From NCBI GenBank assembly GCA_041650755.1, contig JBAZKN010000005.1:580-64579 (forward strand): a DNA stretch of 64,000 nucleotides, written 5' to 3'. How positions within the stretch are numbered: the first letter of the stretch is position 1; the number at the start of each line of letters is the position of its first letter. Source of the DNA: Patescibacteria group bacterium (GTDB taxonomy: Bacteria; Patescibacteriota; Patescibacteriia; UBA1558; GWA2-36-10). The translations under genes were made by a program, and so were the position numbers. Below, piece after piece: positions 17,277 through 37,417 of this stretch. The notes beneath the pieces were generated by a model. That model was not told the DNA's origin, did not search any database, and worked only from the letters and a program-made list of their open reading frames with translations.

Positions 17277-18296
17277 GACAAATACATTGATAAGTACTTT
17301 GAGAAGAATCTGAATAACCAGACTAAGTCTCATATTTATTTGAATGATATAAAGATAGCTACGGTGAATAACAATAATGACCCATATTATATACTATCAG
17401 ATCATTTGAGTTCTAGCTCAATACTGACTGATAGTACTGGCACCACAGCTCAATTGTCAGATTACAAGCCATTTGGTAATATTAACTATGATAATGAGAT
17501 CATTGACTTAAAGAATGATTATAAGTTCACTGGACGGGAGTATGACGAAGAGACCAATATTCAGTATTTTGGAGCGAGGTATTATGATAACCAGTTGGGT
17601 AGATTTACGGCTATAGATCCGTTAATGATTGATATCTTAGATGCTAAGAAGTATAATAAGAATACTGATGAAATTTTAGCTAATCCCCAAGAATTAAATT
17701 CTTATTCTTATGTAGCCAATAATCCTGTGGTATATGTAGATCCAACAGGAGCCATCAAAGTGAATTATGATGATGCCACTGATGAGCAGAAAACTCAATT
17801 CAAAGAGGCGCTAGTTAAATTGCATGATTTGGTTCAAAATAATCAAGAGATACAGGATTATTTTAAATCATTTGATAAAGATATTGATATTGTTAAGATT
17901 TTGAGCAGTGACGAAAAATATGGTCCGGACGTATTTATAGGAGTGGATGATAACCCCGATAAACCGCTAGCTGGGTCATATAATGGAGATTGGTGGTTTA
18001 ATGATGTAAACATATATGATCTTGGATTAGAGGGTGATTCTGAGTCAATTGGTAGCACTTTAATTCACGAACTGAGCCACTGGGCTAATGATGCAGGTAG
18101 TTGGTTCGGTGATAAAAATCCAAATATAAGTGGATTTAAATCCTATGAACATTTTATGAGTCAGCAAAACTCCAAAGACCAGGGATTATCAGGTTATGAA
18201 AAGCAGCAACGATTTAATACATATTATAAGGTTATGAGTGATTGGGGAGGGCCTTATGGATATTTCGCTGAGGATATTCTATACGGTAAATATTAA
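17277..18296 (+). CDS. Orphan RHS C-terminal cassette 1 (no ATG; RHS core fragment plus HExxH metallopeptidase-like toxin tip)
   Basis: Frame is open from 17277 directly after a stop. About 75% nucleotide similarity to 15680-15860 of the main rhs. 'YKFTGREYDEETNIQYFGARYYDNQLGRFTAIDP ... VYVDPTGA'. Toxin region carries 'HELSHW'. Confidence 0.7.
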   Translation, partial: DKYIDKYFEKNLNNQTKSHIYLNDIKIATVNNNNDPYYILSDHLSSSSILTDSTGTTAQLSDYKPFGNINYDNEIIDLKNDYKFTGREYDEETNIQYFGARYYDNQLGRFTAIDPLMIDILDAKKYNKNTDEILANPQELNSYSYVANNPVVYVDPTGAIKVNYDDATDEQKTQFKEALVKLHDLVQNNQEIQDYFKSFDKDIDIVKILSSDEKYGPDVFIGVDDNPDKPLAGSYNGDWWFNDVNIYDLGLEGDSESIGSTLIHELSHWANDAGSWFGDKNPNISGFKSYEHFMSQQNSKDQGLSGYEKQQRFNTYYKVMSDWGGPYGYFAEDILYGKY

Positions 18297-18301
18297 AATA
18301 T

Positions 18302-18709
18302 ATGATTATGAATAAGAAAATTAATCTGATTTTAACAATTTTAATTGGTTTAGGACTTCTGCTTTTTGGTCTATCGCCCATGACTCCTTATACACCTTAC
18401 GTTCTGCTAGTATTATTGATTATTTTATTTACTTCTACCTTTAAGTTTCGTGAAAAGAAAATAATCAGTTCACTTTTCTATATCATGTTGGTGTTATCTG
18501 TATTATATATGATAATACCATTTAAGATCATAAATATAAACAATGCAGAAGATGTTAAATTATTTTTTGTAGGAGATGAAAAGGTTAAAATTTTACCTAT
18601 CGTAAATGCAGATTTGGAATATCTAGATAAGCGTCCACTGGAAGTTTACCCGGTTGGTGATGTTATTATTAGAATAGCCCCTCATTACGTAGTGCTTATA
18701 AGGAACTAA
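18302..18709 (+). CDS. Membrane protein, candidate immunity for orphan cassette 1
   Basis: 3 TM helices. Lies immediately downstream of the toxin tip. Confidence 0.4.
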   Translation: MIMNKKINLILTILIGLGLLLFGLSPMTPYTPYVLLVLLIILFTSTFKFREKKIISSLFYIMLVLSVLYMIIPFKIININNAEDVKLFFVGDEKVKILPIVNADLEYLDKRPLEVYPVGDVIIRIAPHYVVLIRN

Positions 18710-18716
18710 TAAATAC

Positions 18717-18745
18717 AAAAAACCGCCTTTCTGGCGGTTTTTTGA
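18717..18745 (+). terminator. Rho-independent terminator
   Basis: aaaaccgcc-tttct-ggcggtttttt. Confidence 0.6.
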
Positions 18746-18749
18746 TGTA

Positions 18750-19075
18750 GGTAAGCTGTTGGTAACTAGAGCCTTCGCAAGACCTCAAAAGTGAGCTAAG
18801 CTAAAGGTGGACTTTTAGTTCTTTTTTAGCTAAAATATAGTTAACAATTAAATAACATTGGCTTAACAGCCAAGCGCCTAAACTTAAGGATTTTCCTTGG
18901 GCATGGTGCAAAAACCTATAACAGTAAATGGCTCGTCGTCAGAGCACTGTTATAGGTCATGCCTCGAAAGGGGTATGGGTCTCCGTAAGGGGATCGCTGG
19001 CGGCGGGCTTTTTGCATCTCCGGCAGCCCTCTCACTTAGGTCGAAAGTGAGTCTAGGAATTAATTATTAATCAAA
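18750..19075. ncRNA. Candidate structured RNA or island-border element (unassigned)
   Basis: GC-rich. Nested perfect stems (ggcatgg...cctataacagt / actgttatagg...tcatgcc), GNRA-like 'cgaaagg' and 'tcgaaagtga' loops, no ORF. Confidence 0.25.
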
Positions 19076-19083
19076 ATAATTTT

Positions 19084-19578: not shown

Positions 19579-19587
19579 CCACACTAA

Positions 19588-21033
19588 TTATCCCAACATA
19601 GTCAACCTTGGCATACTAAACTGATGCTCCAGTATCTTCATAATCAGCATAGAAAAAGCATCGGCTAGGTCATCGTGTTTTTCGACCCCAAAGTTAGTTA
19701 TTTCCTGTATAAGTTCTTCGGCTCCGTGACGAGGGAAAACTACATAACCTCGTTTAACAGAATTTGAAGCTATGGCTAATCGTGATCTCTTGTCTAAGCG
19801 TCCGAAATTAACTCCTTCTACTTGCATACAGTAATCATCTTGTAATTGGTGGATAAAAGCCCGTTGGTACCCAACGTCTTCTACATAAACATCAGGATAA
19901 TCTCCTTTACGTATACTATTAGCTAAACTTTTAACTGCTTGAATAGCGTCTGGGAAAGTCAGACGTTGGTTAATGGGATGGGGCAGAATATAGATTAGGG
20001 GACGTTCGTCAACAATATAAACTAAAGCCGCGACCATAGCTGTATAATCAGCTGTGGTCTTTTCAGAAATAGCTAAGTCAATACCAATAGCTGGGAAGAA
20101 AAAATGTTCTCGACTTTTAGGGATCTCATCATAGTAGCATAGCCACTCTGGATGAATCACTCTTTCCGAGTTAGAGATAATACGCAGTAAATACTCCCTA
20201 TACCAGGCTGTATCATTTCCCACTCGCTTTTTAAGATTTCCAATACTTTCGTTATCTGGATATTTCCCAGGCCAAGCACACTGGTTGTTGTCATCTAACA
20301 GAGGATAGGAACGATATATGCCTTTGAGATTATTATCTTTAATACCCTGTTGTAATCGCATTAACACTGAATCTTCGTGTAAAAGATTGCCCACTACAAT
20401 AATGCGAGTGTTTAAGTCTCCGGCTGGAATAACATCTCCTACCAGCCATTGATGAGTCTTGTCCCGACTTTCTTTGGTCTTTACAGATTCCAAATCTTCC
20501 ACATCATCGCAAATAATTAAATCTGGTCTATATTGCCCATGTCTTAAACCCCTAATACTTTGTTCAGTAGAAGCGGCTATGATCCTAGCGTCATATTTAG
20601 GGATAACTAGAGCATAAGAACCCCATTCATCAGCTTGCTCTTCAAAAGGTCCTAAGTCAGCTCTAAGTAGTTTATTTTGCTCTAATTCTCGTTTAAGGTT
20701 CATTAAGTGCTGCCTAGCCTGTCTTTGGGTCTGACTAAGCATAACCACAAACTTCTTTTTCTGTTGTCCTAGTATTGCCCAAATTGGGTATGACATATTC
20801 ATAATCGTGGATTTTCCGGATCCACGGAAGGCCACTATAACAGCCATAGGAATACTTTCGTCTTCGGTTATAGAAAATAATTCTTTATGAAATCTGGCCG
20901 TCTCGTGAGTCACATACTTGGCAAAGTAGAGATGGAAAAATAGTAAATGACTTTGTCTAGTGATGGCTGTCCGGACTTTCCGGTCTTGGTAGACTTGCCT
21001 CAGTAGTTGAGGCGTTAACATTGTTGGGTTCAT
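19588..21033 (-). CDS. Phage terminase large subunit-like ATPase/nuclease
   Basis: Walker A 'AFRGSGKST'. Walker B-like 'LIICDDVED'. Acidic residues in the C-terminal nuclease-like half. Size and order fit terS-terL. Confidence 0.55.
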   Translation of the reverse strand: MNPTMLTPQLLRQVYQDRKVRTAITRQSHLLFFHLYFAKYVTHETARFHKELFSITEDESIPMAVIVAFRGSGKSTIMNMSYPIWAILGQQKKKFVVMLSQTQRQARQHLMNLKRELEQNKLLRADLGPFEEQADEWGSYALVIPKYDARIIAASTEQSIRGLRHGQYRPDLIICDDVEDLESVKTKESRDKTHQWLVGDVIPAGDLNTRIIVVGNLLHEDSVLMRLQQGIKDNNLKGIYRSYPLLDDNNQCAWPGKYPDNESIGNLKKRVGNDTAWYREYLLRIISNSERVIHPEWLCYYDEIPKSREHFFFPAIGIDLAISEKTTADYTAMVAALVYIVDERPLIYILPHPINQRLTFPDAIQAVKSLANSIRKGDYPDVYVEDVGYQRAFIHQLQDDYCMQVEGVNFGRLDKRSRLAIASNSVKRGYVVFPRHGAEELIQEITNFGVEKHDDLADAFSMLIMKILEHQFSMPRLTMLG

Positions 21034-21439
21034 ATATTTGTTGTTCTTTCTCGTCAGAGTCAGCGTGCAAGGCGGCTAGTTTTAAGGCCTCGGTCACGAC
21101 TGCTTGTTGCTCTGGCGTTAATACCTGGTTAGATTCTTCAAGTTTGGCGGTTACTTGGAGTTTAGTGGTGTATTGCGGATGGTGATGTTTGAGCCACATA
21201 ATAATGGCTGTCAGATTACGATCTTTAATAGCGGTAATTAATTGGGACTCCGCCATGTCGTTTATGAGCAGTGATCCTTGTAGTATGGCCTGATCAGCTT
21301 CTTTGGCAAAAGATTCGTTGTCTTTACGCAGACGATAATAGGTCGCTCTACTGATGCCAGACTTTTCACACGCTATTTGCACTATAGGAGTTTTCTTGAG
21401 CTGTTCAATCAACTCATTTTTTTGTTGCTTACTTATCAT
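20957..21439 (-). CDS. HTH DNA-binding protein (possible terminase small subunit)
   Basis: 'IACEKSGISRATYYRLRK' helix-turn-helix. Overlaps the terL start. Confidence 0.4.
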   Translation of the reverse strand: MISKQQKNELIEQLKKTPIVQIACEKSGISRATYYRLRKDNESFAKEADQAILQGSLLINDMAESQLITAIKDRNLTAIIMWLKHHHPQYTTKLQVTAKLEESNQVLTPEQQAVVTEALKLAALHADSDEKEQQIYEPNNVNASTTEASLPRPESPDSHH

Positions 21440-22766
21440 GACCGTGTAATTTAATAGTTTTTTTACCAGTTAGTTTTTTCCAACGCTTTTTGATCACTTC
21501 TGTATAGACGGGGGATTTTTCCATGATATAGCATCTGCGCTTCATTTTGGTGGCCGCTATTAACGTTGAACCAGAGCCACCAAATGGCTCGACAATGAGG
21601 TCATCGCGCTTGGTAAGGACTTTGATATATGGAATAAGAATTTCTACTGGTTTGGTGCCGAAAATCACTCCTTGACCAGAGCTTTTCTCGTCCGAGGCCT
21701 TATAGTCAATAAAGTCAGTTGGGGCGTACTTCTTGCCTTTTTGATAGCCTTCCCAATGGGGTTTACCGGCTATGGCGTATAAGGCGGTTTCGTATTCATT
21801 TTGAAGTGGCGTTTCTTCTGTGGATAGATTTAGTTCTAAACTGTCTTTACTACTGCCCACCATAGCTATATCGTGTTTTGAGAAAAATTTATACTTAGCC
21901 GCAAAGCCCTGGGTTCTATTGGGTAGTCGCCAAACTATCATATTTTTAACCTTCCAATACTTTTCCATTTCTGCCCAAATAGTTCTAAGATTTTTCCAAT
22001 TCTCATAGACTATGATATGAAAATCATCTTTGGCTATTTTGGCAATATTTTTCATCCACAATTCAGTAAAATTATCAGGCAAACTATCTGTACCCAAATA
22101 CCGTCTATCTCGCTTATAGCCGAAGCCCTCGCTAGACTTATGTTTCTTTTTACCTTTTAAATAATTTAATATATAAGGTGGATCGGTTAGACACATGTCA
22201 GCACTAACACCATTCATTAATTTTAGCATGTCGGCCTCAATAGTGGAGTCACCACACATCAGGCGACTGCCATCTAACTCATAAACATCACCTTTTTTAG
22301 TTTGAATGTTTTTAATATCTAATTTAGCCAGTTCTTTTTGGAGGTCAAATTTTTCTGGTTCTATATCTATATCAAAGATATCATCCAGTTCTTCGCTGCT
22401 GAAACCAAGATTTACTAGGAACGACTCGTCAAATTCAGCTAGTAGCTTAAAGTCAAATTCACCAGTGTTTTTATTGAGCCTTAGATTAAGCTCTTTTTCT
22501 TTTTCTAGATTAGGAATATTGACATAGACTACTGGCACTGTCTTATATCCCAAATCTTTAGCTATTTTGAGTCTAAAATGACCGCCAATGACCACATTCT
22601 CCCGACCTTTGGCTGAATTGCAGATAATAGGGTCTACTAGTCCATATCTGTTAATGCTGTCTGTTAAGTCCTGGATAGCCTTTTGACTCCACTTCCTAGG
22701 GTTGTAGGAAGCGGGACTTAATACCTTAGGATCAAGGTATTGGATTTTGAGGTTGTTTTTGTCCAT
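21429..22766 (-). CDS. ParB-like nuclease domain fused to an N6-adenine/N4-cytosine DNA methyltransferase
   Basis: N-terminal ParB-N 'VVIGGHFRLKIAKDLGY'. Methyltransferase motif IV 'CLTDPPYILNY'. Motif I 'VEPFGGSGST'. Confidence 0.7.
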   Translation of the reverse strand: MDKNNLKIQYLDPKVLSPASYNPRKWSQKAIQDLTDSINRYGLVDPIICNSAKGRENVVIGGHFRLKIAKDLGYKTVPVVYVNIPNLEKEKELNLRLNKNTGEFDFKLLAEFDESFLVNLGFSSEELDDIFDIDIEPEKFDLQKELAKLDIKNIQTKKGDVYELDGSRLMCGDSTIEADMLKLMNGVSADMCLTDPPYILNYLKGKKKHKSSEGFGYKRDRRYLGTDSLPDNFTELWMKNIAKIAKDDFHIIVYENWKNLRTIWAEMEKYWKVKNMIVWRLPNRTQGFAAKYKFFSKHDIAMVGSSKDSLELNLSTEETPLQNEYETALYAIAGKPHWEGYQKGKKYAPTDFIDYKASDEKSSGQGVIFGTKPVEILIPYIKVLTKRDDLIVEPFGGSGSTLIAATKMKRRCYIMEKSPVYTEVIKKRWKKLTGKKTIKLHGHDK

Positions 22767-22793
22767 GGTTTTATTGGTTAATAATTAATCTTA

Positions 22794-23153
22794 TTATCGT
22801 TTTTTATCTAGAATTCCGGCTAGCTTAAGGAACATTTCAACGGCCTTTGGATTACCTTTAGTTGAGGCATTGCTATATAGCCCTCCGATGGCATCGGGAA
22901 CGCGATCTTTTACCCAAACACTTATTTCGCTTTGCACAAGTGGCCAGAATTGCACGTCTTTCGTCCAATCAGTTAAGGTGTCCTCACAGACTCCGATTTG
23001 TTTTGCAAATTCCTTTTGTGTTTCGGGATTACGAAACTTATAAGGCGTAGCAAACCATTTGGCAAATAGTATAAATTCAGATACCCGCTGAACCCCGGGC
23101 ACGACTTTTATAGAATCGGAGTCAATCGGAGCGAGGGTTTTGTTTTTAGTCAT
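22794..23153 (-). CDS. Small HTH-containing phage-like protein
   Basis: 'TQKEFAKQIGVCEDTLTDW'. Confidence 0.3.
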   Translation of the reverse strand: MTKNKTLAPIDSDSIKVVPGVQRVSEFILFAKWFATPYKFRNPETQKEFAKQIGVCEDTLTDWTKDVQFWPLVQSEISVWVKDRVPDAIGGLYSNASTKGNPKAVEMFLKLAGILDKKR

Positions 23154-23252
23154 AGCTTAGTAATTAGTTAAATGAAAAAAGAGCCATTATTATCATAGCT
23201 CTTTTTCAAATAGTCCATTCCGAGTTCCGCTCGAGTTCCGTTTTGTAATGTT

Positions 23253-24392
23253 TTAGCTTATCTTAGCAATTTTTCTTTTGCTTCTTTTTAAGTCATTTCG
23301 ATGGGCCTTTACACATGCGATTGATCCACATGTTATTTGCCATTTGTTGCGGGGCTTAAAATTACTCTTACAAATAGGGCATGTTTTATTAATAAATCCA
23401 GTTAAAACTTGCTTTACAGTTTCTTCTTTTTCAGTCAGAAAATATAAGAAAGCATTAATAATATAAATCATGTAATGCGTGTCCTCAAGACTAGCAATAT
23501 CATTGTCGTTTAGAGATTTAATATATGCTGTTTTAATTTTATTACTGCGAGCAGATTCGTTAATCAAGCTTTTTTTCGAAATAAATTCTCGCCAGTCATA
23601 TATAAATTCTTTGGTTAGTTTATACTTATCTAAGATTTTTTTTGCCCGTTCTTTAAAAATAGGGGATATATCAAAATCGTACTCCTGTCCCCATTCTATT
23701 TTTGAAGGTTTATGTCCATATGCCTCTCGGTATTGTGTATATTTTTCTCTTTTTTTCTTTTCAAATAATTTATGTATTTTTTCCATCTCATGGTATATCT
23801 CTAGAAATTTATATAAGTCAGCTATCCTTTTCTGGATGGACGCTATTATTTTTTTTCTATCAATATCATTTTTGTGTTCTTTAATCCATATCAAATATGG
23901 TAGAGCAATTTTTATGGCAAGTATTTGCTTTTTATCGTATAAAAATTCATATTGTTTTTTTATGGCACTAGCACTGGTGTAAAAATCAGAAAACTGTCTT
24001 TGCTTCCAGGCAAAAGATTTCTGTTGCGACGGCCACTCTACCATATTGTTATCAAAATAATAATCGAGCCAATGATCATTAAGTTTTCCGAGACTACCGA
24101 TGCAATAGTAATTTTTTCTGTCCAATTTTATAATTTTAAATTTGTCTAAATCCTTAGGGTGGATATAACGCCATTCATTTAGTCCGTTAAAAGAAGCATA
24201 TACTCTTTTAAACTCCACAACCCCTAAATATACTTTTAAGGCGGGGAAGACTAATTTATGCTTATGTAGCTCCTCTAGGGTATTTTTATCAATCTTAAGC
24301 CCGTTATCTTGGCAGTAGCCAACGAAAAAAGACATATGGATTAAACCCCCCTGATTGAGCGGCATTTGGGTTTTAAACTCTGTAGCTTCCAT
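23253..24392 (-). CDS. Hypothetical protein with a C-terminal Cys4 zinc-ribbon
   Basis: 'CPICKSNF...CGSIACVKAH'. No other motifs recognised. Confidence 0.3.
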   Translation of the reverse strand: MEATEFKTQMPLNQGGLIHMSFFVGYCQDNGLKIDKNTLEELHKHKLVFPALKVYLGVVEFKRVYASFNGLNEWRYIHPKDLDKFKIIKLDRKNYYCIGSLGKLNDHWLDYYFDNNMVEWPSQQKSFAWKQRQFSDFYTSASAIKKQYEFLYDKKQILAIKIALPYLIWIKEHKNDIDRKKIIASIQKRIADLYKFLEIYHEMEKIHKLFEKKKREKYTQYREAYGHKPSKIEWGQEYDFDISPIFKERAKKILDKYKLTKEFIYDWREFISKKSLINESARSNKIKTAYIKSLNDNDIASLEDTHYMIYIINAFLYFLTEKEETVKQVLTGFINKTCPICKSNFKPRNKWQITCGSIACVKAHRNDLKRSKRKIAKIS

Positions 24393-24458
24393 TTATTTAA
24401 CGTTTTTCTTAGTATTTTTTATTTTATTCGCAAATCCCTAATTTACGGGGTAGAGTAT

Positions 24459-24487
24459 TTGACAATCTTTGTATATTTGTATATAAT
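24459..24487 (+). promoter_or_regulatory. Consensus sigma70-like promoter upstream of the lexA-like gene
   Basis: TTGACA (24459-24464), 17 nt spacer, TATAAT (24482-24487). ATG lies at 24496. Confidence 0.5.
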
Positions 24488-24495
24488 ACTAGTGT

Positions 24496-25167
24496 ATGAA
24501 ATATACCAAAAAACCAACAAAAGGGCAACTGGAAGTACTGGATTTTATTCAGAAATATATAGAAAAGCACAATATTCCACCACTTATTGAGGACATAAAA
24601 TCAGCTTTTCAGTTTAAATCAACACGCTCTGTCACCCAATATCTAGATGCTTTAACCAGACAAGGGTACATAGAAAGGAATCGTAAACAAAAAAGAGGCA
24701 TACAGTTAGTTAATCATTATCAAGAACCAGGGCTAGACACTGTTTTAGTTCCTTTGCGTGGCACAGTTTCCTGTGGTCAGCCTAGTTTCTACGCTGATGA
24801 CAACATAGAGAATTTTTATTCAGTTGATAGCAGGTTATTGACCAGTAAAGTGAATAATTATTTTTTGGTGAGATCTTGCGGAAACTCCATGAACAGAGCG
24901 GGTATAGAAGATAATGATTTGGTGTTGGTAGAAAAAACTGATTATTTTGCAAACGGAGATAGGGTTGTAGCAGTTATTGATGGTCTGGCTACTATAAAGA
25001 ATTTTTCCAAGGGAGATTCTTCAATAGTGTTATACCCAGCTTCTTCTGATGATAAGCATAAGCCTTTAATAGTTAAAGACGATTTTAATCTGGTAGGTAG
25101 GGTAGTCGATATATTGCCAGATCCGGAATCTTTTAATGATATCAGGTATGAACCTGTAAACCAATAA
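24496..25167 (+). CDS. lexA: LexA-family repressor (winged-helix N-terminus + S24 peptidase C-terminus), either host LexA or a prophage CI-like repressor
   Basis: N-terminus 'QLEVLDFIQKYIEKHNIPPLIEDIKSAFQFKSTRSVTQYLDALTRQGYIER'. Catalytic Ser in 'CGNSM'. Lys in 'VVAVIDGLATIKNF'. Confidence 0.75.
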   Translation: MKYTKKPTKGQLEVLDFIQKYIEKHNIPPLIEDIKSAFQFKSTRSVTQYLDALTRQGYIERNRKQKRGIQLVNHYQEPGLDTVLVPLRGTVSCGQPSFYADDNIENFYSVDSRLLTSKVNNYFLVRSCGNSMNRAGIEDNDLVLVEKTDYFANGDRVVAVIDGLATIKNFSKGDSSIVLYPASSDDKHKPLIVKDDFNLVGRVVDILPDPESFNDIRYEPVNQ

Positions 25168-25181
25168 TTAATCAAGCAAGC

Positions 25182-25424
25182 ATGGCAAATTATCACGTAA
25201 CAAAAAACAAAGATATTGGCAAATGGCAGGCTAAGAAAGAAAAGGCCGATAGAGTCGCCGGCTTTTATGACACACAAGCGGAAGCCGAGGCAGCAGCGAA
25301 ACAATTTTCAGCTAATAGCGGCGGTGGTGAGGTAAGGATCCACAGCCCGAAAGGTCCAATTAGGGATAGTGATACAGTTCCACCAGGAAATGATCCTAAT
25401 CCGCCTAAAGACAGGAGATTTTAA
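25182..25424 (+). CDS. DUF2188 family protein
   Basis: 'YHVTKNKDIGKWQAKKEK...GFYDTQAEAEAAAKQ...GEVRIHSPKGPIRDSDTVPPGNDPNPPKD' matches the DUF2188 consensus pattern. Confidence 0.6.
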   Translation: MANYHVTKNKDIGKWQAKKEKADRVAGFYDTQAEAEAAAKQFSANSGGGEVRIHSPKGPIRDSDTVPPGNDPNPPKDRRF

Positions 25425-25428
25425 TCGT

Positions 25429-25857: not shown

Positions 25858-25861
25858 ACAT

Positions 25862-27105: not shown

Positions 27106-27107
27106 AT

Positions 27108-27311: not shown

Positions 27312-27327
27312 TATATGCTCACAGAAT

Positions 27328-28293: not shown

Positions 28294-29943
28294 GATTTTA
28301 TCCTCAATAAGAAAATCAATCTTGCTAACCTTACTCGGCTGATTTGGATCATTATAAGCTTTAAGTTTTATAGGAAGTGACCCATATAGGGTTATTTTTT
28401 TGTTTAGAAAAACTATCTTATCTATATAGTCCAGTAAAAACTCTCTTTTAGTATTAAAGTTGGTAGCTTGCTCAAATCTTGTTTTAGCTACTTCATAGAA
28501 TTGTTTGACGCTTGTTTCTATTACTTGCTTCTTGTGTAGTCTAGGCATTTTATTTATAAGCTGATTTTTTTGTGTTTTTAGATTATCTATTTCTTTTTCA
28601 CACAGGGAGCAATTTTTGGAATATAAGGTTCTAGTAATTTTGCTCTTGGCGTAATCATCTAGATATTGTTTTTTATCTTTGGTAATTTTTAATATACTAT
28701 TTTCAATATCGCTGATTTCATTTTCTACTTTTTCATGAGTTAAGCCATTTTTAGTTTTCATGTAGTCAGTACAAAGTAGTAATCTGTCAGGATCAAGTAG
28801 CGTGTCTTTAATCATTTTAAAAACACATTTTTCTATTTTTGGTGCTGATACCTCGGGATTTTTACACAAGTATTTATCCATTTTCTTAGAGTGCATCCTG
28901 TTTTTTACCTTTAGCCCACAGTGATAGGCAACTTTGTAAGTTATTTTAGAAGATCCATCTACTAGTTTATATTTATAATATCTCTGATAGGGTATATAGT
29001 TTCTACCGCAATTACCACATCGTATTAATCCAGATAGTAATTGTTCTTCTGATTTTTTCTTATAGACCTTTTTATTTTTGTCCAGTCTCTTTTGGACTTT
29101 ATCAAATAAGCCTTTGGAAATAATAGCTGGAACTTTGACGGCAATCCACTCTGATTTGTCTTTTTCTATTCTTTTGCCATATTTAATTTTATAAATAGAC
29201 TTCTCAGGTTTTTTCTCATATTTAGTTTTATTAAAATATTTTATGCCATAGTAGGTGGTATTGGTCAGTATGTGCCTTAATTTTTCGGTATCCCATAATT
29301 TTAAACCTAAATGAGTTTTAATACCTTTTTCTTCTAAATATACAATTAGTTGTTTCCAGCTTATTCCCTTAGCATATTGCTCATATATGTATTTAACTAT
29401 TTTAGCTTCATCCTTGTTGATTATCATTTTAGCCGGAGTTTTGTTTGTGCGTTTGATATAAGTATAGCCAAACATATTAGCACCACTGTTTAATACCTGA
29501 CCTTGTTTTAGTTTATGGATTTTACCTCTTAGGCTTCTTTCAATTATTTTGGCACGCTCCAGTTCAGAAACCGCACCCAGAACCGTTAAAGCAAATTTGT
29601 TCTCTGGATTATGGACATAATCCTTGCCGTTTATAATAATCTGCTTTTTGTATTTTAGAATCTCAGCAATGATAATTGTCTGGTAAGTTACTTCTCTGGC
29701 AATTCGGTCAGTATTTAAAAAATAAATCGTATCAAATAAATCGCTTTTTAAGTCATCTCTTAACTTATTCATTCCTGGTCTATCCAACTGTGCACCAGAG
29801 TATCCGTCGTCAATATACTCTTTGATTAAAACGTCATTATTTTCTTTTATTTGTTTTTTAAGCTCAGCGATTTGGCTCTCTATGGTTCTTTCTTTTTCCT
29901 GCAGAGCCGAACTAACTCGGGCGTATAGTACTGCTTTTTTCAT
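28288..29943 (-). CDS. Large serine recombinase (resolvase/invertase N-domain + recombinase + zinc-ribbon)
   Basis: 'KKAVLYARVSSALQ' catalytic Ser. Cys-rich zinc ribbon 'CGNCGRNY...YHCG'. C-terminal coiled-coil. Confidence 0.8.
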   Translation of the reverse strand: MKKAVLYARVSSALQEKERTIESQIAELKKQIKENNDVLIKEYIDDGYSGAQLDRPGMNKLRDDLKSDLFDTIYFLNTDRIAREVTYQTIIIAEILKYKKQIIINGKDYVHNPENKFALTVLGAVSELERAKIIERSLRGKIHKLKQGQVLNSGANMFGYTYIKRTNKTPAKMIINKDEAKIVKYIYEQYAKGISWKQLIVYLEEKGIKTHLGLKLWDTEKLRHILTNTTYYGIKYFNKTKYEKKPEKSIYKIKYGKRIEKDKSEWIAVKVPAIISKGLFDKVQKRLDKNKKVYKKKSEEQLLSGLIRCGNCGRNYIPYQRYYKYKLVDGSSKITYKVAYHCGLKVKNRMHSKKMDKYLCKNPEVSAPKIEKCVFKMIKDTLLDPDRLLLCTDYMKTKNGLTHEKVENEISDIENSILKITKDKKQYLDDYAKSKITRTLYSKNCSLCEKEIDNLKTQKNQLINKMPRLHKKQVIETSVKQFYEVAKTRFEQATNFNTKREFLLDYIDKIVFLNKKITLYGSLPIKLKAYNDPNQPSKVSKIDFLIEDKIL

Positions 29944-31621
29944 AGCTTAGTTTATTATATTCTTTATTAGTTATTTGCTTATTATCTAATAATCCATCTT
30001 TTTTATCTTGTCGTTGTAGTTTCTTAAGGGCTTGTAGTCTATTTATCTTATTGGTTATTACAAAAGCTAGTTTAGTATTTTTAATAGTCACAAAGCCGTA
30101 TAGTTTTATTTCATCAACACCTTTGTTATGGATATATTCTATTTTAGAGACGTATCTTTGTAAGAAATCTTTTGTTTTTAATTTAGAAAAATCAGCTTTA
30201 GCATGGTTGGAATAACTCAGCACACTATTTCCTATTTCTTGAGGATTATTAAAAACTGGCATCGATTGTGCCAGTTCTTTGTTTGTTTTTTCCAGTGATT
30301 GTATGTTTTTGTCATAACCATTAACTTTTTCTACATAGGTTTCTCTTTCCAGATCTCCTAAGGAGTATAGATCAACAATTCTTTGCTTTTGTTTTTGGAT
30401 AGATTTTATCTGGGTTTTGATTTGTTTGATTTCTTTTTCAACTTTAGCTTGGTTAACAGCATTGCTTTTGGAAAAATAATCCATACAGTTTTTTAGTTTA
30501 TCGGGATCAAAGACATATTTTTCAATCATCTTGAATATTTGCGGTTCTAATATTTTACTGTTAATTTCCCGGTTGTGGGCTTTATATAAACTACCGCCGC
30601 ATTTATATATTGTTCTTTGATAAATTTTTGTTTCTTTTTTCCTATATACTTTATAACACCTATGATAAGCAAAACATCTTTTATGACATACGCCGCAAAA
30701 AACTATATTGGATAAGGGCTGAGTGTTTTTAGCGTTGCGGTAGCACTCCAAATTATATTTAATTTTACTCTGCACTTTATCAAATAAATCTTTATCAATA
30801 ATTTGCGGAATCTTGATGCCAATCCAAGTTGACCTGTCTGTTGGCACTCGTCGTATAGTTTTACTTCTACCCTCAAGCCGATTTAAAGCATTGGTGTCAG
30901 TTGTAGTATTAAAATATCTTATACCAGTGTATGTTTCGTTATCTAACATTATTCTTATATGATACCAAGTCCATTTTCTACCTCGACGAGGTGGAATATT
31001 TTTTTCTTTTATCTTTTTAACTATTTCTCTGAAACTTATATTACCCTGGGCATAAAGTTTAAAAATATAGTTAACAACCTTAGCTTCTTTAGGATTGATT
31101 TCATATGAAGGAAAGGACTTATCACTTTTGGGAATATAATTGTAGCCATAAATGTTGCATCCGTGTGATAGTAGTTGCCCTTGCTTTAATCTATATTGCC
31201 TGCCTCGCATACTACGTTCTAGTATTTTAGTTTTTTCCAGCTCGGCTACAGCCCCAAGCACCGTTAAAGTAAACTTGTTCTCGGGGTTATGAATATAGTC
31301 CTCGCCGTTAATAATAATCTGTTTCTTATGCCGCAGAATTTCCCCGATGATGATATTTTGGTAAGTGACATCTCGGGCGATTCTGTCAGCGTTATGGAAA
31401 TAGATGCTATCAAATTTATTAGTTTTAATATCTTCCCGTAATTTATCCATCCCAGGTCTACTGAGCATAGCTCCGCTGTAGCCGTCATCTACATATTCTT
31501 TTACTAGAATATTGCCGACTTTTTTGATCTGCTTTTTGAGCTCGTCTACCTGACTTTCTATAGTTCTTTCCTTTTCTTGCAGGCTTGAGCTTACCCTAGC
31601 GTATAATACTGCTTTTTTCAT
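29912..31621 (-). CDS. Large serine recombinase (second tandem copy)
   Basis: 'KKAVLYARVSSSLQ' and 'CGVCHKRCFAYHRC...YKCG'. About 45% identity to its neighbour. Confidence 0.8.
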   Translation of the reverse strand: MKKAVLYARVSSSLQEKERTIESQVDELKKQIKKVGNILVKEYVDDGYSGAMLSRPGMDKLREDIKTNKFDSIYFHNADRIARDVTYQNIIIGEILRHKKQIIINGEDYIHNPENKFTLTVLGAVAELEKTKILERSMRGRQYRLKQGQLLSHGCNIYGYNYIPKSDKSFPSYEINPKEAKVVNYIFKLYAQGNISFREIVKKIKEKNIPPRRGRKWTWYHIRIMLDNETYTGIRYFNTTTDTNALNRLEGRSKTIRRVPTDRSTWIGIKIPQIIDKDLFDKVQSKIKYNLECYRNAKNTQPLSNIVFCGVCHKRCFAYHRCYKVYRKKETKIYQRTIYKCGGSLYKAHNREINSKILEPQIFKMIEKYVFDPDKLKNCMDYFSKSNAVNQAKVEKEIKQIKTQIKSIQKQKQRIVDLYSLGDLERETYVEKVNGYDKNIQSLEKTNKELAQSMPVFNNPQEIGNSVLSYSNHAKADFSKLKTKDFLQRYVSKIEYIHNKGVDEIKLYGFVTIKNTKLAFVITNKINRLQALKKLQRQDKKDGLLDNKQITNKEYNKLSYEKSSTIRPS

Positions 31622-31771
31622 AGTTTTTTGCTATACTTAGCTTATTACGAGGGGATGATACCGCAGGGGTGGATAAAGTCCAACTTATAATTGGTAAAGC
31701 CATATTAGACAATGAACGTCCAAGTCAGTCAAGTTTTGGAAAAACCGTAGTTCTTTTACAAATCTAAGAAA

Positions 31772-32650: not shown

Positions 32651-32651
32651 T

Positions 32652-33092
32652 ATGGACAAAACAGTATTTAAAGATAGATTTCGACGGGCAATAAAAAAAA
32701 CTATTGAATTAGCACAGAAATATGTAAAAGAAAAAATTCCCAAAGATTTTATTATTGATTTGTCGAGGATAGATAGTAAGGATACACATAAGTCTAAGTA
32801 TGAAGGTCGTTATGAGGATTTAGAAAAGGTGATCGAAAAGTTATATCAAGATGGTAGTGTGCCCAGGTGGGTTGATTTAAATGTTAAGACTGTGGAAAAC
32901 GACCTGTCGATTATTAGGTGTGAATATAGTAATATTTTTTTTAATGATGAGAGTAATCTTTTACATGAGGATGAGGGAGTGCCACCATTTCATATATTAA
33001 GTCCACATATACCACCCAGTCATTTCGATTTTGATAAAAATAAAGTTAAAGAGGGTAAATTTAGTATTAAAGATATTCCAAAGGAAGATTAG
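32652..33092 (+). CDS. Candidate immunity protein for cassette 2
   Basis: Starts 2 nt after the toxin stop. Confidence 0.4.
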   Translation: MDKTVFKDRFRRAIKKTIELAQKYVKEKIPKDFIIDLSRIDSKDTHKSKYEGRYEDLEKVIEKLYQDGSVPRWVDLNVKTVENDLSIIRCEYSNIFFNDESNLLHEDEGVPPFHILSPHIPPSHFDFDKNKVKEGKFSIKDIPKED

Positions 33093-33113
33093 TTTTATTT
33101 TGTTAGTAAATAA

Positions 33114-34640
33114 AAATCAGCTACCTATACCTACGATGACTTAAATAGGTTGCTTTCAGCTACAGTAAGCTATATTAATCATCCAGACAAAAACTACACC
33201 CAAACCTTTATTTACGACTCTATTGGTAATATGACCTCAAACTCTGATCTGGGTACAATGAACTATCTAAATAACAATCCTCATCAGCTCACCTCTGTAG
33301 GCTCAAGAAACTTTGTCTATGACAATGCCGGCAACCTTAATAGGGAAATAGGCCTAAGAAAGTACTACTGGGATCATAGAAATAGGCTAAAAAACACCTA
33401 TGATATAGCTTCAGAAAACAATACTTACTATCTCTATGACCATAATAACCAAAGATTCATCAAATGGACTGAAGACTATCTCTACTACCCTCCTGATCCA
33501 GAAGAGCCAACAGAAAGCATAGCAACCAGAGATCTACCTAGTATATCTGAAGAAAGTCTTAGCCAAGAAACCCTTGCTTTAGATGGCACGGGCTACTGGG
33601 CTTGGACTGTGGTTAGTCAAGACAAGTATGTTGATAAGTATTACGAGAAGAATCTCAATAATCAAACCAAGTCTCATGTCTTCCTAAATGGCATTAAAAT
33701 TGCTACAATTAATAATAATGATAATCCCTATTATATTATCAGTGATCATTTAAATTCTAGCAATTTGCTCACTACCCCTACTGGTACTATAGCTGAAGTG
33801 GAGGATTATAAGCCATACGGTACTACTAATTACCAGAATACTATTCAGGATTTATCTGATAATTATGGTTTCACCTCAAAAGAAAAAGATCCTGAAAGTA
33901 ATCTGCAATACTATGGGGCAAGGTATATGGATAATGAGATTGGGAGGTTTACCAGTATAGACCCATTATTGGTAAAGCTTCATAATCCCCAAGAAGTTAG
34001 CAGAATCACAGAGAAAGATTTAAGAATATTGTTAGCTGATCCTCAAAAGTTGAATAGTTATAGTTATGCCTATAACAATCCAATGATAATGAATGACCCA
34101 ACAGGCGAGGGTCCAGTTATAGTATTAATTGTAGTTGGTGTTGTTGAGTTAGTTTTCTCTGCTTGGGATGCCTTAGATACTAGTAATGCTTTATTTGGAG
34201 AAAATGTTAGTACAGGAGATAAAGTAGAATCTGGCGGGTATCTAGTAGCAGGGTTGGCACTTCCAGGTGGAGGTTATGGTCATGTTGATGAGGGTGTCTC
34301 TGCATTGAAAGCGGTCGATAAAACAGTTAGTAAATCTATTAATAATGCTGTAAATAAAATTGGTAATACTATATCTGATCATCTTACTAAGACCGATTAT
34401 GCAGGATTTATCAGAGATTTGAGTAAGGCGCCAGTTTGGAGTGATAATTTGAGAAGAAATTTTGACCATTATGATGAAGTGATGTCTGCATATAAAGGTT
34501 TGCAAAATAACGTGTCAAAGCTCACAAGATATTTAGATAATTATAATTTAGATAAAAAGACAGTTGATACTATAAATAAAGCCATTGATACAGCCAAAAG
34601 CCATATAGACAGAATAGATAATATATTAAGATCACATTAG
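33114..34640 (+). CDS. Orphan RHS C-terminal cassette 3 (no ATG; long RHS homology arm + TM-containing toxin tip)
   Basis: Frame is open from 33114. 33121-33420 is nearly identical at DNA level to 15181-15480 of the main rhs. 'YMDNEIGRFTSIDP...NDPTGEG', then TM 'PVIVLIVVGVVELVF'. Confidence 0.7.
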   Translation, partial: KSATYTYDDLNRLLSATVSYINHPDKNYTQTFIYDSIGNMTSNSDLGTMNYLNNNPHQLTSVGSRNFVYDNAGNLNREIGLRKYYWDHRNRLKNTYDIASENNTYYLYDHNNQRFIKWTEDYLYYPPDPEEPTESIATRDLPSISEESLSQETLALDGTGYWAWTVVSQDKYVDKYYEKNLNNQTKSHVFLNGIKIATINNNDNPYYIISDHLNSSNLLTTPTGTIAEVEDYKPYGTTNYQNTIQDLSDNYGFTSKEKDPESNLQYYGARYMDNEIGRFTSIDPLLVKLHNPQEVSRITEKDLRILLADPQKLNSYSYAYNNPMIMNDPTGEGPVIVLIVVGVVELVFSAWDALDTSNALFGENVSTGDKVESGGYLVAGLALPGGGYGHVDEGVSALKAVDKTVSKSINNAVNKIGNTISDHLTKTDYAGFIRDLSKAPVWSDNLRRNFDHYDEVMSAYKGLQNNVSKLTRYLDNYNLDKKTVDTINKAIDTAKSHIDRIDNILRSH

Positions 34641-34641
34641 T

Positions 34642-35082
34642 ATGATAAATTTAGAAAAGTCATTAAATGAATTAGAAGGCCATATTAACTCTAGCGATCC
34701 TAATGATGCACTTGTTAAAAAAGTGGAAGAAATTAGGAAAAAGAGATTAAAGGATTTAACAGTAGAAGATTTAGCTTTGTTGTTAAGACAGAAAATTAGT
34801 TTGGAGTTTGTAGTGCCATTATGTTTAAACAAATTGGATAAGGACATACTAATTGAAATGGAACGTAGTGGACTTCGCCTGCTGCCAACCTTATTGAAAA
34901 TCGAAAAAGATTTTTGGTCTGTTAATCAAGATTTGTATAATCAAACGGCTGATTTAATGAATGGTAAAATGGATGAAATTATGAACCCAGAAATGGATAA
35001 TCCAGTGGAGCTAGATAGTTATATATCTGATCAGTTGCCAGAGATTTTGAAGTCATATCAAAATTTTAGAGATTTAGAATAA
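34642..35082 (+). CDS. Candidate immunity protein for cassette 3
   Basis: Starts 2 nt after the toxin stop. Acidic helical protein. Confidence 0.4.
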   Translation: MINLEKSLNELEGHINSSDPNDALVKKVEEIRKKRLKDLTVEDLALLLRQKISLEFVVPLCLNKLDKDILIEMERSGLRLLPTLLKIEKDFWSVNQDLYNQTADLMNGKMDEIMNPEMDNPVELDSYISDQLPEILKSYQNFRDLE

Positions 35083-35186
35083 TAAATATACCTTCACTGG
35101 ACAAATAATTTCCCAACAATAAGACAGCACAACTACCTATTATAAATCATCTATACTCCGAGCCTATAAAATTTTCATAATAATTT

Positions 35187-35340
35187 GCCCCTCGACTTCG
35201 CCCTCTCGACTTCGCTCGAGGACTCCGTTCGGGGCATTCTCCTCGTCTAATATATTATAATTGGTTGAAGCTCCTCATGATGAATGAGGAGCTGAAACCA
35301 TGAGCGAGGAGTCCCAAATAGGGACGACGAGTCGAATGGG
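35187..35340. repeat. GC-rich MITE-like element (inverted copy of the element at 63116-63275)
   Basis: 'ctcgacttcgctcgaggactccgttcggggc' and 'ctcctcatgatgaatgaggagctgaaaccatgagcgaggagtc' are the reverse complement of 63140-63250, with the AT-rich centre replaced. Confidence 0.55.
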
Positions 35341-36623
35341 ATCATAGAAATAGGCTAAAAAACACCTATGATATAGCTTCAGAAGACAACACCTACTATC
35401 TCTATGACCATAATAATCAGAGGTTTATTAAATGGACTGAAGACTATCTCTATTATCCTCCTGATCCAGAAGAGCCAACAGAAAACATAGCAACCAGAGA
35501 TCTGCCCAGTATATCTGAAGAAAGCCTTAGCCAAGAACCCCTTGCTTTAGATGGTGCTGGCTACTGGGCTTGGACTGTGGTATCACAAGATAAGTATGTT
35601 GATAAATACTTTGAGAAGAATTTGAATAACCAGACTAAAACCCACCTATACCTCGATAATATTAAATTAGCTACTATAAATAATAATGGTAATCCAAACT
35701 ACATACTATCTGACCATCTAAGCTCTTCAGATATTATTATAGACAGCTCTGGATCTATTATGGAGTCAACTGATTACAAACCTTTTGGCAGTATACAAGC
35801 TGAATATACTGTTACAGACCCTATTTCAGACTACAAGTTTTCAGGGAAAGAGGTCGATGAAGAGAGTGCTTTACAATATTTTGGGGCAAGGTATAATGAT
35901 AATCAGTTGGGGAGGTTTGTAAGTATCGATCCAGCTACACTATCTATAAGTGATGAAAAAGAGTTTAAAGACAAGTATAATCGTAGTGTAGAGTCCCATT
36001 TATCTGATCCACAAAACTTGAATTCTTATTCTTACGTTGCTAATAATCCTTTAAAGAATACAGATCCAGATGGGGAAATAGTAGAGACCGTAGTAGACGT
36101 GGGTTTTGTTACTTATGATACTGGAAATACTTTATATAAAGGAGGCCAGTTTGTGGGTTCATTATTTTCTGGTGACTTTCAAAAAGTATCAGGTGCTTCA
36201 AATGCTTTTTTGGGGTCATTTGTTGATTTGAGTGTTGATGCTGGAGCTACGTTAATACCATTTGTGCCGGCTGGGTTAACTAGGGTTGATGATGCTGCTA
36301 AACTTGTTAATAAAGCCAAAGATTTTGATGCATTGGCCCAGCAGAGTAAAATGTTGAAAGGAATAGAGAACAGCAAGGCCATCAACACAATTAAAGCCGT
36401 ATTTAAGCCAAGTGACACAATCCCTGGCGGTACAATAGGTGCATTAAGGAATGAAATAATGACCGGTAATAAGACGAAAGACATATTTCACACTGAAAAG
36501 GCCAAAAATGTTATCAGTAATATAAGAAATGTTTTTAAGAGCGAAAATTTAAACAAAGTAGAATCAAGCCGTCTAAACAGTATTAGTAATAGCCTTCAAT
36601 CATTAATTAAACACATTAAATAA
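35322..36623 (+). CDS. Orphan RHS C-terminal cassette 4 (no ATG; RHS homology arm + toxin tip)
   Basis: Frame is open from 35322, inside the MITE end. 35341-35900 is nearly identical to 15421-15980 of the main rhs. 'GRFVSIDP...NTDPDGEIVE' followed by a unique C-terminus. Confidence 0.7.
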   Translation, partial: GRRVEWDHRNRLKNTYDIASEDNTYYLYDHNNQRFIKWTEDYLYYPPDPEEPTENIATRDLPSISEESLSQEPLALDGAGYWAWTVVSQDKYVDKYFEKNLNNQTKTHLYLDNIKLATINNNGNPNYILSDHLSSSDIIIDSSGSIMESTDYKPFGSIQAEYTVTDPISDYKFSGKEVDEESALQYFGARYNDNQLGRFVSIDPATLSISDEKEFKDKYNRSVESHLSDPQNLNSYSYVANNPLKNTDPDGEIVETVVDVGFVTYDTGNTLYKGGQFVGSLFSGDFQKVSGASNAFLGSFVDLSVDAGATLIPFVPAGLTRVDDAAKLVNKAKDFDALAQQSKMLKGIENSKAINTIKAVFKPSDTIPGGTIGALRNEIMTGNKTKDIFHTEKAKNVISNIRNVFKSENLNKVESSRLNSISNSLQSLIKHIK

Positions 36624-36633
36624 CAAATATTTT

Positions 36634-36951
36634 ATGAAATTATTTACGGTAACCACTACATTTTCGGACTTTACTTTTGCAGTAGAGCAATACGAAGTTA
36701 ATTCGCCAGAAGAAGCGGTTGAAAAGCATTTTAAAGAAGCGGGATGTTTTAGTGATTACAATAGAGATGAAATAGTAGCAATTATAATGAAAAGACTGGA
36801 GGAAAAAAACGCCCTTGTACACGCAAAAGGCCCAAGAGGTGTATGGCAGATTAATACAGGGGCAGAATTTTTAGATTTTGAGGGAGATCTTGAATCAATA
36901 TACGGTGGCTTAGTTATACAAACAGATCCACACGGGCCTAGATGGTCTTAA
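36634..36951 (+). CDS. Candidate immunity protein for cassette 4
   Basis: Small ORF 10 nt downstream of the toxin. Confidence 0.35.
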   Translation: MKLFTVTTTFSDFTFAVEQYEVNSPEEAVEKHFKEAGCFSDYNRDEIVAIIMKRLEEKNALVHAKGPRGVWQINTGAEFLDFEGDLESIYGGLVIQTDPHGPRWS

Positions 36952-36991
36952 ATAGTGAAAAGCCGATAATATGGAAATAGAAAATTAATTT

Positions 36992-37417
36992 ATGAAATTA
37001 ACTTATGAAAATGTATTTGCAGAGTTAAAGACTTCTATTCCAGAGCTTTATAAACATCCAGATTATGATGAAATATCCCCTGATTATAGTGGTAATCTAC
37101 CATATGTTGTGTTTAGCTATCTACAAATGTTTTATAAGGAATCTTTTAATAATGGAGATATTGAAACTGTTAAAAAAATTGCCGACTTCCTTGAAAGGGT
37201 TAGCTCGGTCGAAGATAATGATCTAAGGAGTTTATTAATGTTTGGTTTTATGGAAGTGCTATATGGTAACTATGATGATTTTGATAAAGATATGTTGGAT
37301 TATTTTGGAGAGAAAACCAAACAGGTTTTAATTGACACAGTGGAGCATAATTCTAAAATAGGCATGGAGGATAGGAATAAAGTATATAAGCTATTTGGTG
37401 ATAAACTAAAGAAATAG
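36992..37417 (+). CDS. Hypothetical acidic protein (second possible immunity-type gene)
   Basis: Position within the cassette. No motifs. Confidence 0.3.
   Translation: MKLTYENVFAELKTSIPELYKHPDYDEISPDYSGNLPYVVFSYLQMFYKESFNNGDIETVKKIADFLERVSSVEDNDLRSLLMFGFMEVLYGNYDDFDKDMLDYFGEKTKQVLIDTVEHNSKIGMEDRNKVYKLFGDKLKK

Follow-up and report, generated by a model that had tools for sequence, protein, structure and literature searches.

A probable orphan rhs-CT/immunity array with recombination among old alleles in a Patescibacteria genome

We analyzed a 64,000-nt stretch of DNA from a Patescibacteria group bacterium (positions 580 to 64,579 of contig JBAZKN010000005.1, assembly GCA_041650755.1; the whole stretch is called the window below). 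It carries a large rhs toxin gene that is followed by an array of rhs fragments, each with its own C-terminal toxin tip (CT) and one or two small open reading frames (ORFs) of the immunity type. The same stretch was found in contig k141_2241731 (249,924 bp) of ENA assembly ERZ27247363, and the proteins of the window are deposited as 'MAG: Patescibacteria group bacterium' (MAG, metagenome-assembled genome). The rhs region is flanked by housekeeping genes, including those for phosphoglycerate kinase (PGK), enolase, two 2,3-bisphosphoglycerate-independent phosphoglycerate mutases and ribosomal proteins L10/L12, and mraZ-murF. Genes in the window start with an ATG behind an AT-rich leader, and a Shine-Dalgarno signal is absent.

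The main rhs gene encodes a giant protein with a Sec-type signal. The gene (8968-16722, + strand; protein MFA5127231.1 at NCBI) specifies 2584 aa, comprising the signal (MPSKKSLSFRPIIGLMLASLFLSNFSLILAKKAQA/Q), SpvB, FG-GAP, a Gly-rich region, LamG, RHS repeats and an Rhs core; Pfam profiles matched SpvB, FG-GAP, Laminin_G_3 and the RHS repeat (PF05593, 6e-21). The boundary motif NNPIIYTDPSG ends at nt 16143 and is followed by a 192-aa tip (16144-16722). Four nucleotides past the rhs stop is a 101-aa ORF (16727-17032, +; ATG after an AT-rich leader), which is assigned as immunity-type by position and gave no match in a family search. There was no PAAR match in the main Rhs, and there were no vgrG, chaperone or type VI secretion system (T6SS) genes among the ORFs of the window.

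Four rhs-CT/immunity cassettes, C1 to C4, lie downstream of main rhs and begin at 17277, 31772, 33114 and 35322. The core profile TIGR03696 (Rhs_assc_core) matched the main gene, C1 to C4 and an upstream mini-Rhs gene (C5, treated below) with 53.8-76.5 bits (cutoff 32.5). All six modules have the boundary NNPxxxxD(P/K)xG (the variant in C2 is DKDG), followed by a unique tip of 177-199 aa. The six tips are mutually unrelated, and a small ORF lies 2-11 nt 3' of each. An earlier note, made from the sequence of this stretch alone, had proposed an orphan array downstream of the main gene, and core domain, boundary, unique tips and small ORFs were indeed all present. The range that it gave to the array, 17277-37417, holds the cassettes as well as about 13 kb (18.7-31.7 kb) of DNA that is not rhs.

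All of the cassettes are on the + strand. C1 (17277-18296) has an arm at 17277-17750 and a tip at 17751-18296 with a zincin-like HExxH domain; its immunity-type ORF (18302-18709, +, 135 aa) has about three transmembrane helices and is followed by a bidirectional terminator at 18716-18744, found in a terminator scan. C2 (31772-32650) is 5'-truncated, with Rhs homology from about 31838, a tip from 32051 and an ORF assigned as immunity-type by position (32652-33092, +, 146 aa; no match in the family search). C3 (33114-34640) has an arm at 33114-34106 and, from 34107, a tip made of a hydrophobic pre-toxin linker and an Ntox28-like domain. It is followed by an immunity gene of the CdiI_3 family (34642-35082, +; PF18616, 5.6e-15, 55.5 bits against a cutoff of 28). 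C4 (35322-36623) has an arm at 35337-36074 and, from 36075, a tip made of a linker and a conserved domain of about 100 aa. Two immunity-type ORFs follow, immA (36634-36951, +, 105 aa) and immB (36992-37417, +, 141 aa; DUF7674, PF24722, 6.8e-12).

C1, C3 and C4 lack a normal gene start. Their frames open from in-frame stops (TAA 17274-17276, TAA 33111-33113 and TAG 35319-35321), and the 5' ends have no ATG, no AT-rich leader and no signal peptide or other export signal. The mechanical starts are TTG, TTG and GTG, in a coding-like context. Homology to the main gene begins within a few codons of the stop and in the same codon register, at main-gene positions 15166 (C3), 15421 (C4) and about 15670-15680 (C1). 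The orphan ORFs have 339-508 codons in DNA of about 35% GC, and a base-composition calculation puts the chance of 433 stop-free codons at about 1e-14. C2 has an ATG at 31772 behind a normal AT-rich leader (upstream stop at 31748) and is annotated as a protein by NCBI. Its match to TIGR03696 starts only at model position 16, indicating that C2 is truncated. The claim that all four modules are start-less thus holds for C1, C3 and C4 and fails for C2.

The arms are homologous to the 3' part of the main rhs gene, as had been claimed, and are less similar to it than the earlier note stated. By blastn and alignment, the homologous segment of the main gene is 15166-15999 (+). Self-blastn gave E values of 1e-158 and 0.0, far beyond chance: C3 33114-33727 is 83.3% identical to main 15166-15776 (~620 nt) and C4 35337-35933 is 87.6% identical to main 15421-16014 (~600 nt). 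For C1, the match was only 40 nt (17287-17326 and main 15680-15719, 92.5%). Two tracts had been described as nearly identical; 33121-33420 is 91% identical in register to 15181-15480, and 35341-35900 is 87% identical overall to 15421-15980. The identity of 17277-17480 to the main gene, previously put at about 75%, was 62-65%.

The arms of C3 and C4 and the main gene form a mosaic. Over main 15169-15421, the main gene and C3 are 92.9% identical (253 nt), and over 15430-15554 all three sequences are 88-92% identical. An 82-nt patch follows (15555-15636) in which C3 and C4 are 92.9% identical and the main gene is only 44% identical to either. Over 15637-15999, the main gene and C4 are about 96% identical (363 nt; 96.6% over the best 298 nt), and C3 is 58% identical to both over 15702-15999. 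Beyond main 16000, each copy is unique. The C4 arm is therefore C3-like to 35555 and then 96% main-like. The breakpoint maps to main 15632-15663; informative sites uniting C3 and C4 versus the main gene and C4 were 46:5 to its left and 4:127 to its right (Fisher p = 1.4e-32). This mosaic with its sharp breakpoint argues for recombination among these sequences and, as read from the alignment, we regard historical recombination among the main, C3 and C4 sequences as certain.

The arms appear to have diverged within functional genes. We determined synonymous (dS) and nonsynonymous (dN) divergence and found dS 0.40 and dN 0.023 for main/C3 (15169-15552), dS 0.17 and dN 0.007 for main/C4 (15637-15999), and dS 0.51 and dN 0.034 for C3/C4. 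The dN/dS ratios were 0.04-0.07, that is, the differences are nearly all synonymous; of the 13 nucleotide differences in the main/C4 tract, 12 were protein-neutral, and 1 of 121 residues was changed. If one lineage were constrained and the other neutral, the expected dN/dS would be roughly 0.5. The low ratios, together with dS of 0.17-0.51, argue that the arms are not fresh conversion tracts. The claim of recent or ongoing exchange thus divides: the recombination is there, and the very recent age is contradicted by dS values of 0.17-0.40 between the main gene and C3 or C4. Counting synonymous and nonsynonymous changes separates old alleles that were recently parked from recent conversion, a distinction that percent identity by itself does not give. 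With the rhs gene of a sister population (L016; ENA ERZ27247100, k141_523578) the C1 arm shares 85% identity, versus 63% with the resident main gene. The simplest reading of these comparisons is that the arms would be the 3' ends of diverged rhs alleles from other lineages, recently parked here.

One observation in L016 concerns the C3 boundary. At L016 339-347 (window 15163-15171), a TAA replaces a TCA Ser codon in an otherwise collinear rhs, exactly where the C3 arm starts. This may reflect a nonsense allele, an error or a boundary that recurs.

Tips found in the array are carried by full-length Rhs proteins elsewhere. A scan of species-representative genomes yielded the related loci L018 to L021 and L023 (Candidatus Komeilibacteria), and a short contig, L022, with rhs sequence only. 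The gene order in L018 to L021 is peptidase_MA-like, signal-peptide mini-Rhs, main rhs, immunity, orf123, PGK and enolase, with no prophage and with zero or one orphan. From this common order, the variable region of the window is 16723-38458. The full-length main Rhs of two relatives ends in the C4-type tip: in L019 the open frame has 2280 codons and immA (71%) comes next, and in L023 it has 2746 codons, the tip is 77% identical and immB comes directly after it. The SpvB/LamG/RHS architecture is common to both carriers. In L008, a locus with its own main gene and two start-less orphans, the C4-type tip is an orphan, and in L017 it is a solitary fragment; in each of these four other genomes, immA or immB accompanies it. 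From the window to L023, immB shows 87.7% nucleotide and 90.8% amino-acid identity (dS 0.83) and the tip 75% nucleotide identity, whereas the arms are 57% identical with saturated dS. Because the C4-type tip and immB are far less diverged than the arms, we conclude that the cassette moved between lineages. The C1-type tip is at the C-terminus of a 2043-aa SpvB/FG-GAP/RHS database protein (P0133). Homologues of the main tip were only short orphan-like fragments from other Patescibacteria, whose starts are within the arm. Comparable arrays are present in L008 and L016.

The two immunity-type ORFs of C4 are distributed unevenly among these loci. The toxin is followed by immA in L019 (11573-11842), L008 and L017, and by the unrelated immB in L023 (11462-11872). 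The window carries both in tandem (36634-37417); in L021, immB stands by itself as an orphan immunity gene.

We compared the tips with domain families, as the earlier note had proposed, and with structures. The C1 tip has the HELSHW motif at 18066-18083, as had been noted. Among 14 homologues, H106 and E107 of the HExxH motif were invariant and H110 was at least 90% conserved. Pfam and NCBIfam profiles gave no match to this tip. An AlphaFold2 model had a mean confidence (pLDDT) of 85, and in a Foldseek search its best PDB matches were zincins but weak (1g12, Grifola aspzincin: E 0.05, probability 0.96, TM-score 0.39). The model and the conserved motif suggest a zincin-like fold. The C2 tip matched the PT-TG pre-toxin domain (9e-11) and, weakly, ART-PolyVal (ADP-ribosyltransferase-like, E 0.1).

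The C3 tip scored 21.8 bits with Ntox28, below the 25-bit cutoff. The earlier note had described a transmembrane-containing tip at 34120-34640. There is a hydrophobic stretch at the start of the tip (approximately 34113-34166), which is best viewed as a pre-toxin linker: a linker of this type also precedes other toxin domains (in proteins P0010 and P0012, and in P0014 at L017). Since one linker is shared by different toxin domains, these tips are two-part and recombining. The C4 toxin domain, with the invariant motif PGGTxGALRNE...FH, is conserved in 10 carriers. It has no Pfam family, an AlphaFold model built from 10 sequences was poor (pLDDT 44.5), and in a PDB profile search with C4 the match was confined to the Rhs core part. 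Both the C4-type domain, which is highly conserved and has two alternative immunity families, and the zincin-like C1-type domain are candidates for new toxin domains.

Based on these results, we believe, with a probability of about 0.85, that the locus is a classical orphan rhs-CT/immunity array of Patescibacteria, built on a Sec-type SpvB/LamG/RHS scaffold, in which old alleles have been shuffled by recombination. The cassettes would be the 3' ends of diverged rhs alleles that recombination in the core either brought in from relatives or pushed out of the expressed slot, and they would have spent little time as silent DNA. Their immunity genes might protect against neighbors that deploy those toxins. 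A tip could return to the expressed slot through RecA-type recombination of its arm with the main gene, whose codon register all arms share. Delivery from a cell with neither outer membrane nor T6SS would involve Sec export, after which the shell would be displayed on the surface or released, with self-cleavage at the core motif.

Several points weigh against this interpretation. Five of the six toxin/immunity pairs are assigned by position, and only the C3 pair is assigned at the level of families. The low dN/dS could also reflect selection in place, for translation of the orphans or for readiness. The longest exact matches to the main gene are 65 nt (C3), 92 nt (C4) and only 14 nt (C1), and arm identity is moderate; C1 and C2 are therefore poorly suited to recombine with the resident main gene. 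With a crossover between the main gene and C3 or C4, 18-20 kb would be lost, the main immunity gene among them. Neither a recombinant junction nor an alternative order was found, and every recovered assembly fragment has the same arrangement. A search of metagenome contigs with the degenerate arm motif GGNTAYTGGGCNTGGACNGTNGT returned three unrelated chance matches and did not recover the source population. Thus, there is no evidence here for very recent or ongoing switching; ongoing switching is possible.

It is unlikely, in our view, that the orphans are independently expressed short Rhs-core toxins, as the signal-peptide mini-Rhs genes of this lineage seem to be, and that the array is a set of active toxin/immunity operons. 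The very low dN/dS of the arms and the intact frames would fit such operons, as would C2 with its ATG, normal leader and protein annotation. Patescibacteria commonly have short proteins that combine a signal peptide, an Rhs core fragment and a tip (C5, P0005, P0012, P0013, P0015, P0016 and P0023), and none of the C4 ORF's nearest relatives in the database reaches 700 aa. However, C1, C3 and C4 have none of the 5' features of an expressed and exported gene listed above, and the orphan ORFs open in the middle of a repeat, exactly at the onset of main-gene homology. Many of the short database matches begin in the arm (P0002, P0007, P0009, P0010 and P0150-P0153) and are likely orphans whose starts were chosen by the gene caller. 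In Salmonella, a stand-alone orphan product was undetectable (PMC3967940). A different concern is that the similar tracts could be fresh products of gene conversion, from ongoing exchange between the main gene and the orphans within this genome. The sharpness of the mosaic, the 96.6% main/C4 tract with windows at 98-100% and the Salmonella precedent, likewise at 95% identity (PMC3967940), are in keeping with it. We judge it quite improbable nonetheless: dS is still 0.17 in the best tract and 0.40 for main/C3, the 12 of 13 protein-neutral differences between the main gene and C4 fit selection in separate functional genes, and a variant arrangement was absent from all recovered contigs.

The array is very unlikely to be an artefact in which strain variants of one rhs 3' end were strung into a false tandem, a concern related to the collapsed duplicates that the earlier note had raised. 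The source is a metagenome assembly, Logan contigs assembled with k=31 break exactly at the repeats (L007 ends at about 15210, L006 starts at about 35889 and L002 at about 37460), and the assemblies may share one sample, so that their independence is unproven. But the longest exact repeats, of 65 and 92 nt, fall below the k=141 that appears in the identifier of the ENA contig (k141_...), and the assembly paths are therefore unambiguous; breaks in k=31 contigs are also expected if the repeats are real. The 250-kb ENA contig has the same order, and the proteins are common to JGI and NCBI records. No two cassettes share junctions, a tip or immunity genes, and the arrays in L008 and L016 are comparable.

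The orphan array interpretation is consistent with what is known of Salmonella. A close likeness is to the orphan rhs-CT/rhsI modules STM0291/STM0292 of Salmonella Typhimurium LT2 (Koskiniemi et al. 2014, PMC3967940), where a main rhs gene and its immunity gene are likewise followed by start-less fragments, each made of part of the core, a different tip and its own immunity gene. A fusion of main and orphan rhs in Salmonella formed via 522 bp at 95% identity (PMC3967940), a tract comparable to the 96% over 363 nt found here. Salmonella orphan tips sit on full-length Rhs proteins in other strains (PMC3967940), and the C1-type and C4-type tips on full-length Rhs elsewhere follow that reported pattern. 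The loci differ in delivery, with a Sec-type signal and SpvB/FG-GAP/LamG here and PAAR/VgrG-linked T6SS delivery in Salmonella. They also differ in setting: here, the array is in a Patescibacteria MAG, its four cassettes are split by a prophage remnant, the arm differences are mostly synonymous and no recombinants were observed.

WapA/WapI of Bacillus subtilis is a Sec-dependent YD-repeat toxin system of Gram-positive bacteria. The locus resembles it in having an Rhs/YD protein that depends on a signal peptide, in a cell that lacks an outer membrane, with polymorphic C-terminal tips and putative cognate immunity genes. In contrast to WapA, no wall-binding repeats were detected here, and the N-terminal half consists of SpvB/FG-GAP/LamG. 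The Tc toxin cocoon TcB-TcC (TcdB2-TccC3, PDB 4o9x/6h6e) also has SpvB and propeller-type repeats upstream of the RHS shell and a hypervariable C-terminal toxin after an autoproteolytic core, and in a PDB profile search the Rhs core region matched TccC3 and YenC2 by sequence. It differs in that no TcA-like gene, or gene of TcA size, is present in the 64-kb window, although the main Rhs has SpvB and FG-GAP. The adjacent immunity genes and the orphan cassettes point to bacterial rather than eukaryotic targets. In contact-dependent growth inhibition (CDI), orphan cdiA-CT/cdiI arrays were reportedly described by Poole and colleagues in 2011. They share with this locus the tandem start-less toxin-tip/immunity cassettes with homology arms, and the families of the C3 pair (CdiI_3, Ntox28) also occur on CdiA; the scaffold here is Rhs and not CdiA/CdiB two-partner secretion.

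Arrays of this kind are already known from Proteobacteria with a T6SS and, with WapA, from Bacilli, and what is new is the phylum; we found no paper on Rhs orphan arrays in Patescibacteria in the literature searched. Loci with a main rhs and orphans thus reach the ultra-small Patescibacteria, without T6SS or outer membrane. The rhs locus takes up about 17 kb of the genome, excluding the prophage remnant, which argues for real pressure from antagonism by contact or proximity, among epibionts or towards hosts.

A pair of direct repeats and a structured element surround C4. An exact 33-nt direct repeat (35156-35188 and 37457-37489, +) has only these two copies at up to 3 mismatches, with 0 expected by chance. 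The copies bracket a 2.27-kb unit that contains a structured element of 150 nt, C4, immA, immB and a terminator-like hairpin, and upstream of the gene at 37612 lies a promoter-like site (TTGATA-17-TAAAAT) that the second copy overlaps. The repeat had been proposed to mark cassette 3' ends; its copies are exact, and we rejected the proposed role since there is none after C1 or C2 and the repeat brackets C4 only. The GC-rich structured element (35189-35339, - strand) adjoins the 5' edge of the C4 arm and is 78% identical to 63113-63257 (+), with 6-7 compensatory base-pair changes. That second copy is directly after the CCA end of tRNA-Lys, the copy at the C4 arm also immediately follows a CCA, here the complement of a Trp codon, and a partial copy follows tRNA-Thr in the Komeilibacteria genome L023 (17126-17165). 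No Rfam family matched the element at E <= 1. It could be a tRNA-trailer RNA or a target-specific element resembling miniature inverted-repeat transposable elements or repetitive extragenic palindromic (REP) sequences.

Short repeats were also seen at two other loci. In L016, a 28-nt repeat (89%; 2353-2380 and 3836-3863) brackets an orphan and its immunity gene. In L017, a 49-nt repeat (98%; 9829-9877 and 12433-12481) bounds a cassette unit that also includes the gene for a Y1 transposase, with REP-like hairpins. We rejected the idea that such repeats bracket cassettes in general: L016 fits, L017 looks like a REP-type arrangement around the Y1 transposase, and the pattern may be incidental.

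Block insertion of a cassette at a short repeat is possible. In a wider proposal that we consider doubtful, core, linker and toxin would in Patescibacteria form an autonomous module that the giant Sec shell protein and shell-free mini-Rhs proteins both draw from a common pool, and the cassettes would perhaps also be mobile blocks bracketed by repeats. Blocks might then move by a route other than homologous recombination through the arms, as the 33-nt repeat at C4, the 28-nt repeat in L016 and the tRNA-trailer-like element at the edge of the C4 arm suggest. If so, the array would be an acquisition site and not only a graveyard of displaced tips.

The mini-Rhs gene C5 (6935-8062, +) is not part of the orphan array. 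It starts with an ATG after an AT-rich leader and encodes a signal-like N-terminus, an Rhs core (TIGR03696, 76.5 bits), the boundary NNPITFFDPVG and a 190-aa tip. Its putative immunity partner, assigned by position, is a 290-aa protein with multiple transmembrane helices (8068-8940, +), for which we found no Pfam family and no homologue in the relatives. The part of C5 before the tip is conserved (47%) and in synteny in L018, L020 and L021; the tip and the downstream 290-aa protein are not conserved, indicating that this protein varies together with the tip. Similar signal-peptide mini-Rhs proteins are P0015 and P0023. The earlier note had counted C5 as a fifth related module. Because it is in synteny in relatives with a different tip, C5 is, on comparative grounds, a separate polymorphic short Rhs toxin gene rather than an orphan.

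The 13 kb between C1 and C2 (approximately 18.7-31.7 kb) contain the C1 terminator, a LOOT RNA, a tRNA_anti-like gene and a prophage remnant. The LOOT RNA (RF03000; 18875-18995, +) is full length, with 89 bits against a gathering score of 46, and lies between the terminator of the C1 immunity gene and the gene for a tRNA_anti-like membrane protein, near the prophage remnant. The remnant (19588-31621, ~12 kb) has genes for TerL, TerS, a ParB-methyltransferase and a CI/LexA-like repressor (PHROGs, PADLOC and Pfam); capsid, portal and tail genes are absent from it. Its defense cargo includes a PDC-M50A membrane protein and a ThsB-like TIR protein (PDC-M50A/B, 25369-26422), and an E2-like protein (26419-27105). 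Two tandem genes for large serine integrases are on the minus strand (28288-29943 and 29912-31621), and their 5' ends are about 72% identical (29576-29945 versus 31253-31623). Relatives in IMG/VR share the TerL module and run on past TerL, indicating that the copy in the window is truncated there. The prophage is absent from the syntenic relatives. Integration of the prophage into the C2 arm gained no support: the left edge was searched for the other half of the arm, and there was no rhs sequence there.

Three further observations concern the surroundings of the array. The spacer between the main immunity gene and C1 (17080-17270) is GC-rich and hairpin-rich for this genome, with motifs such as 'gatgacgagtcc', and a second similar copy is absent from the rest of the window. 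The two phosphoglycerate mutase genes of the flank are tandem paralogues (41321-44498; 526 and 525 aa), and the duplication is kept in syntenic relatives. L019, L020 and L021 come from MAGs titled 'uncultured Gammaproteobacteria bacterium' and carry the locus with housekeeping flanks, which for L019 and L021 are PGK and enolase (66-67% and 72-73% identical to those of the window) and for L020 the peptidase_MA-like and mini-Rhs genes. With such identities of PGK and enolase in L019 and L021, these three contigs are probably mislabelled as Gammaproteobacteria.

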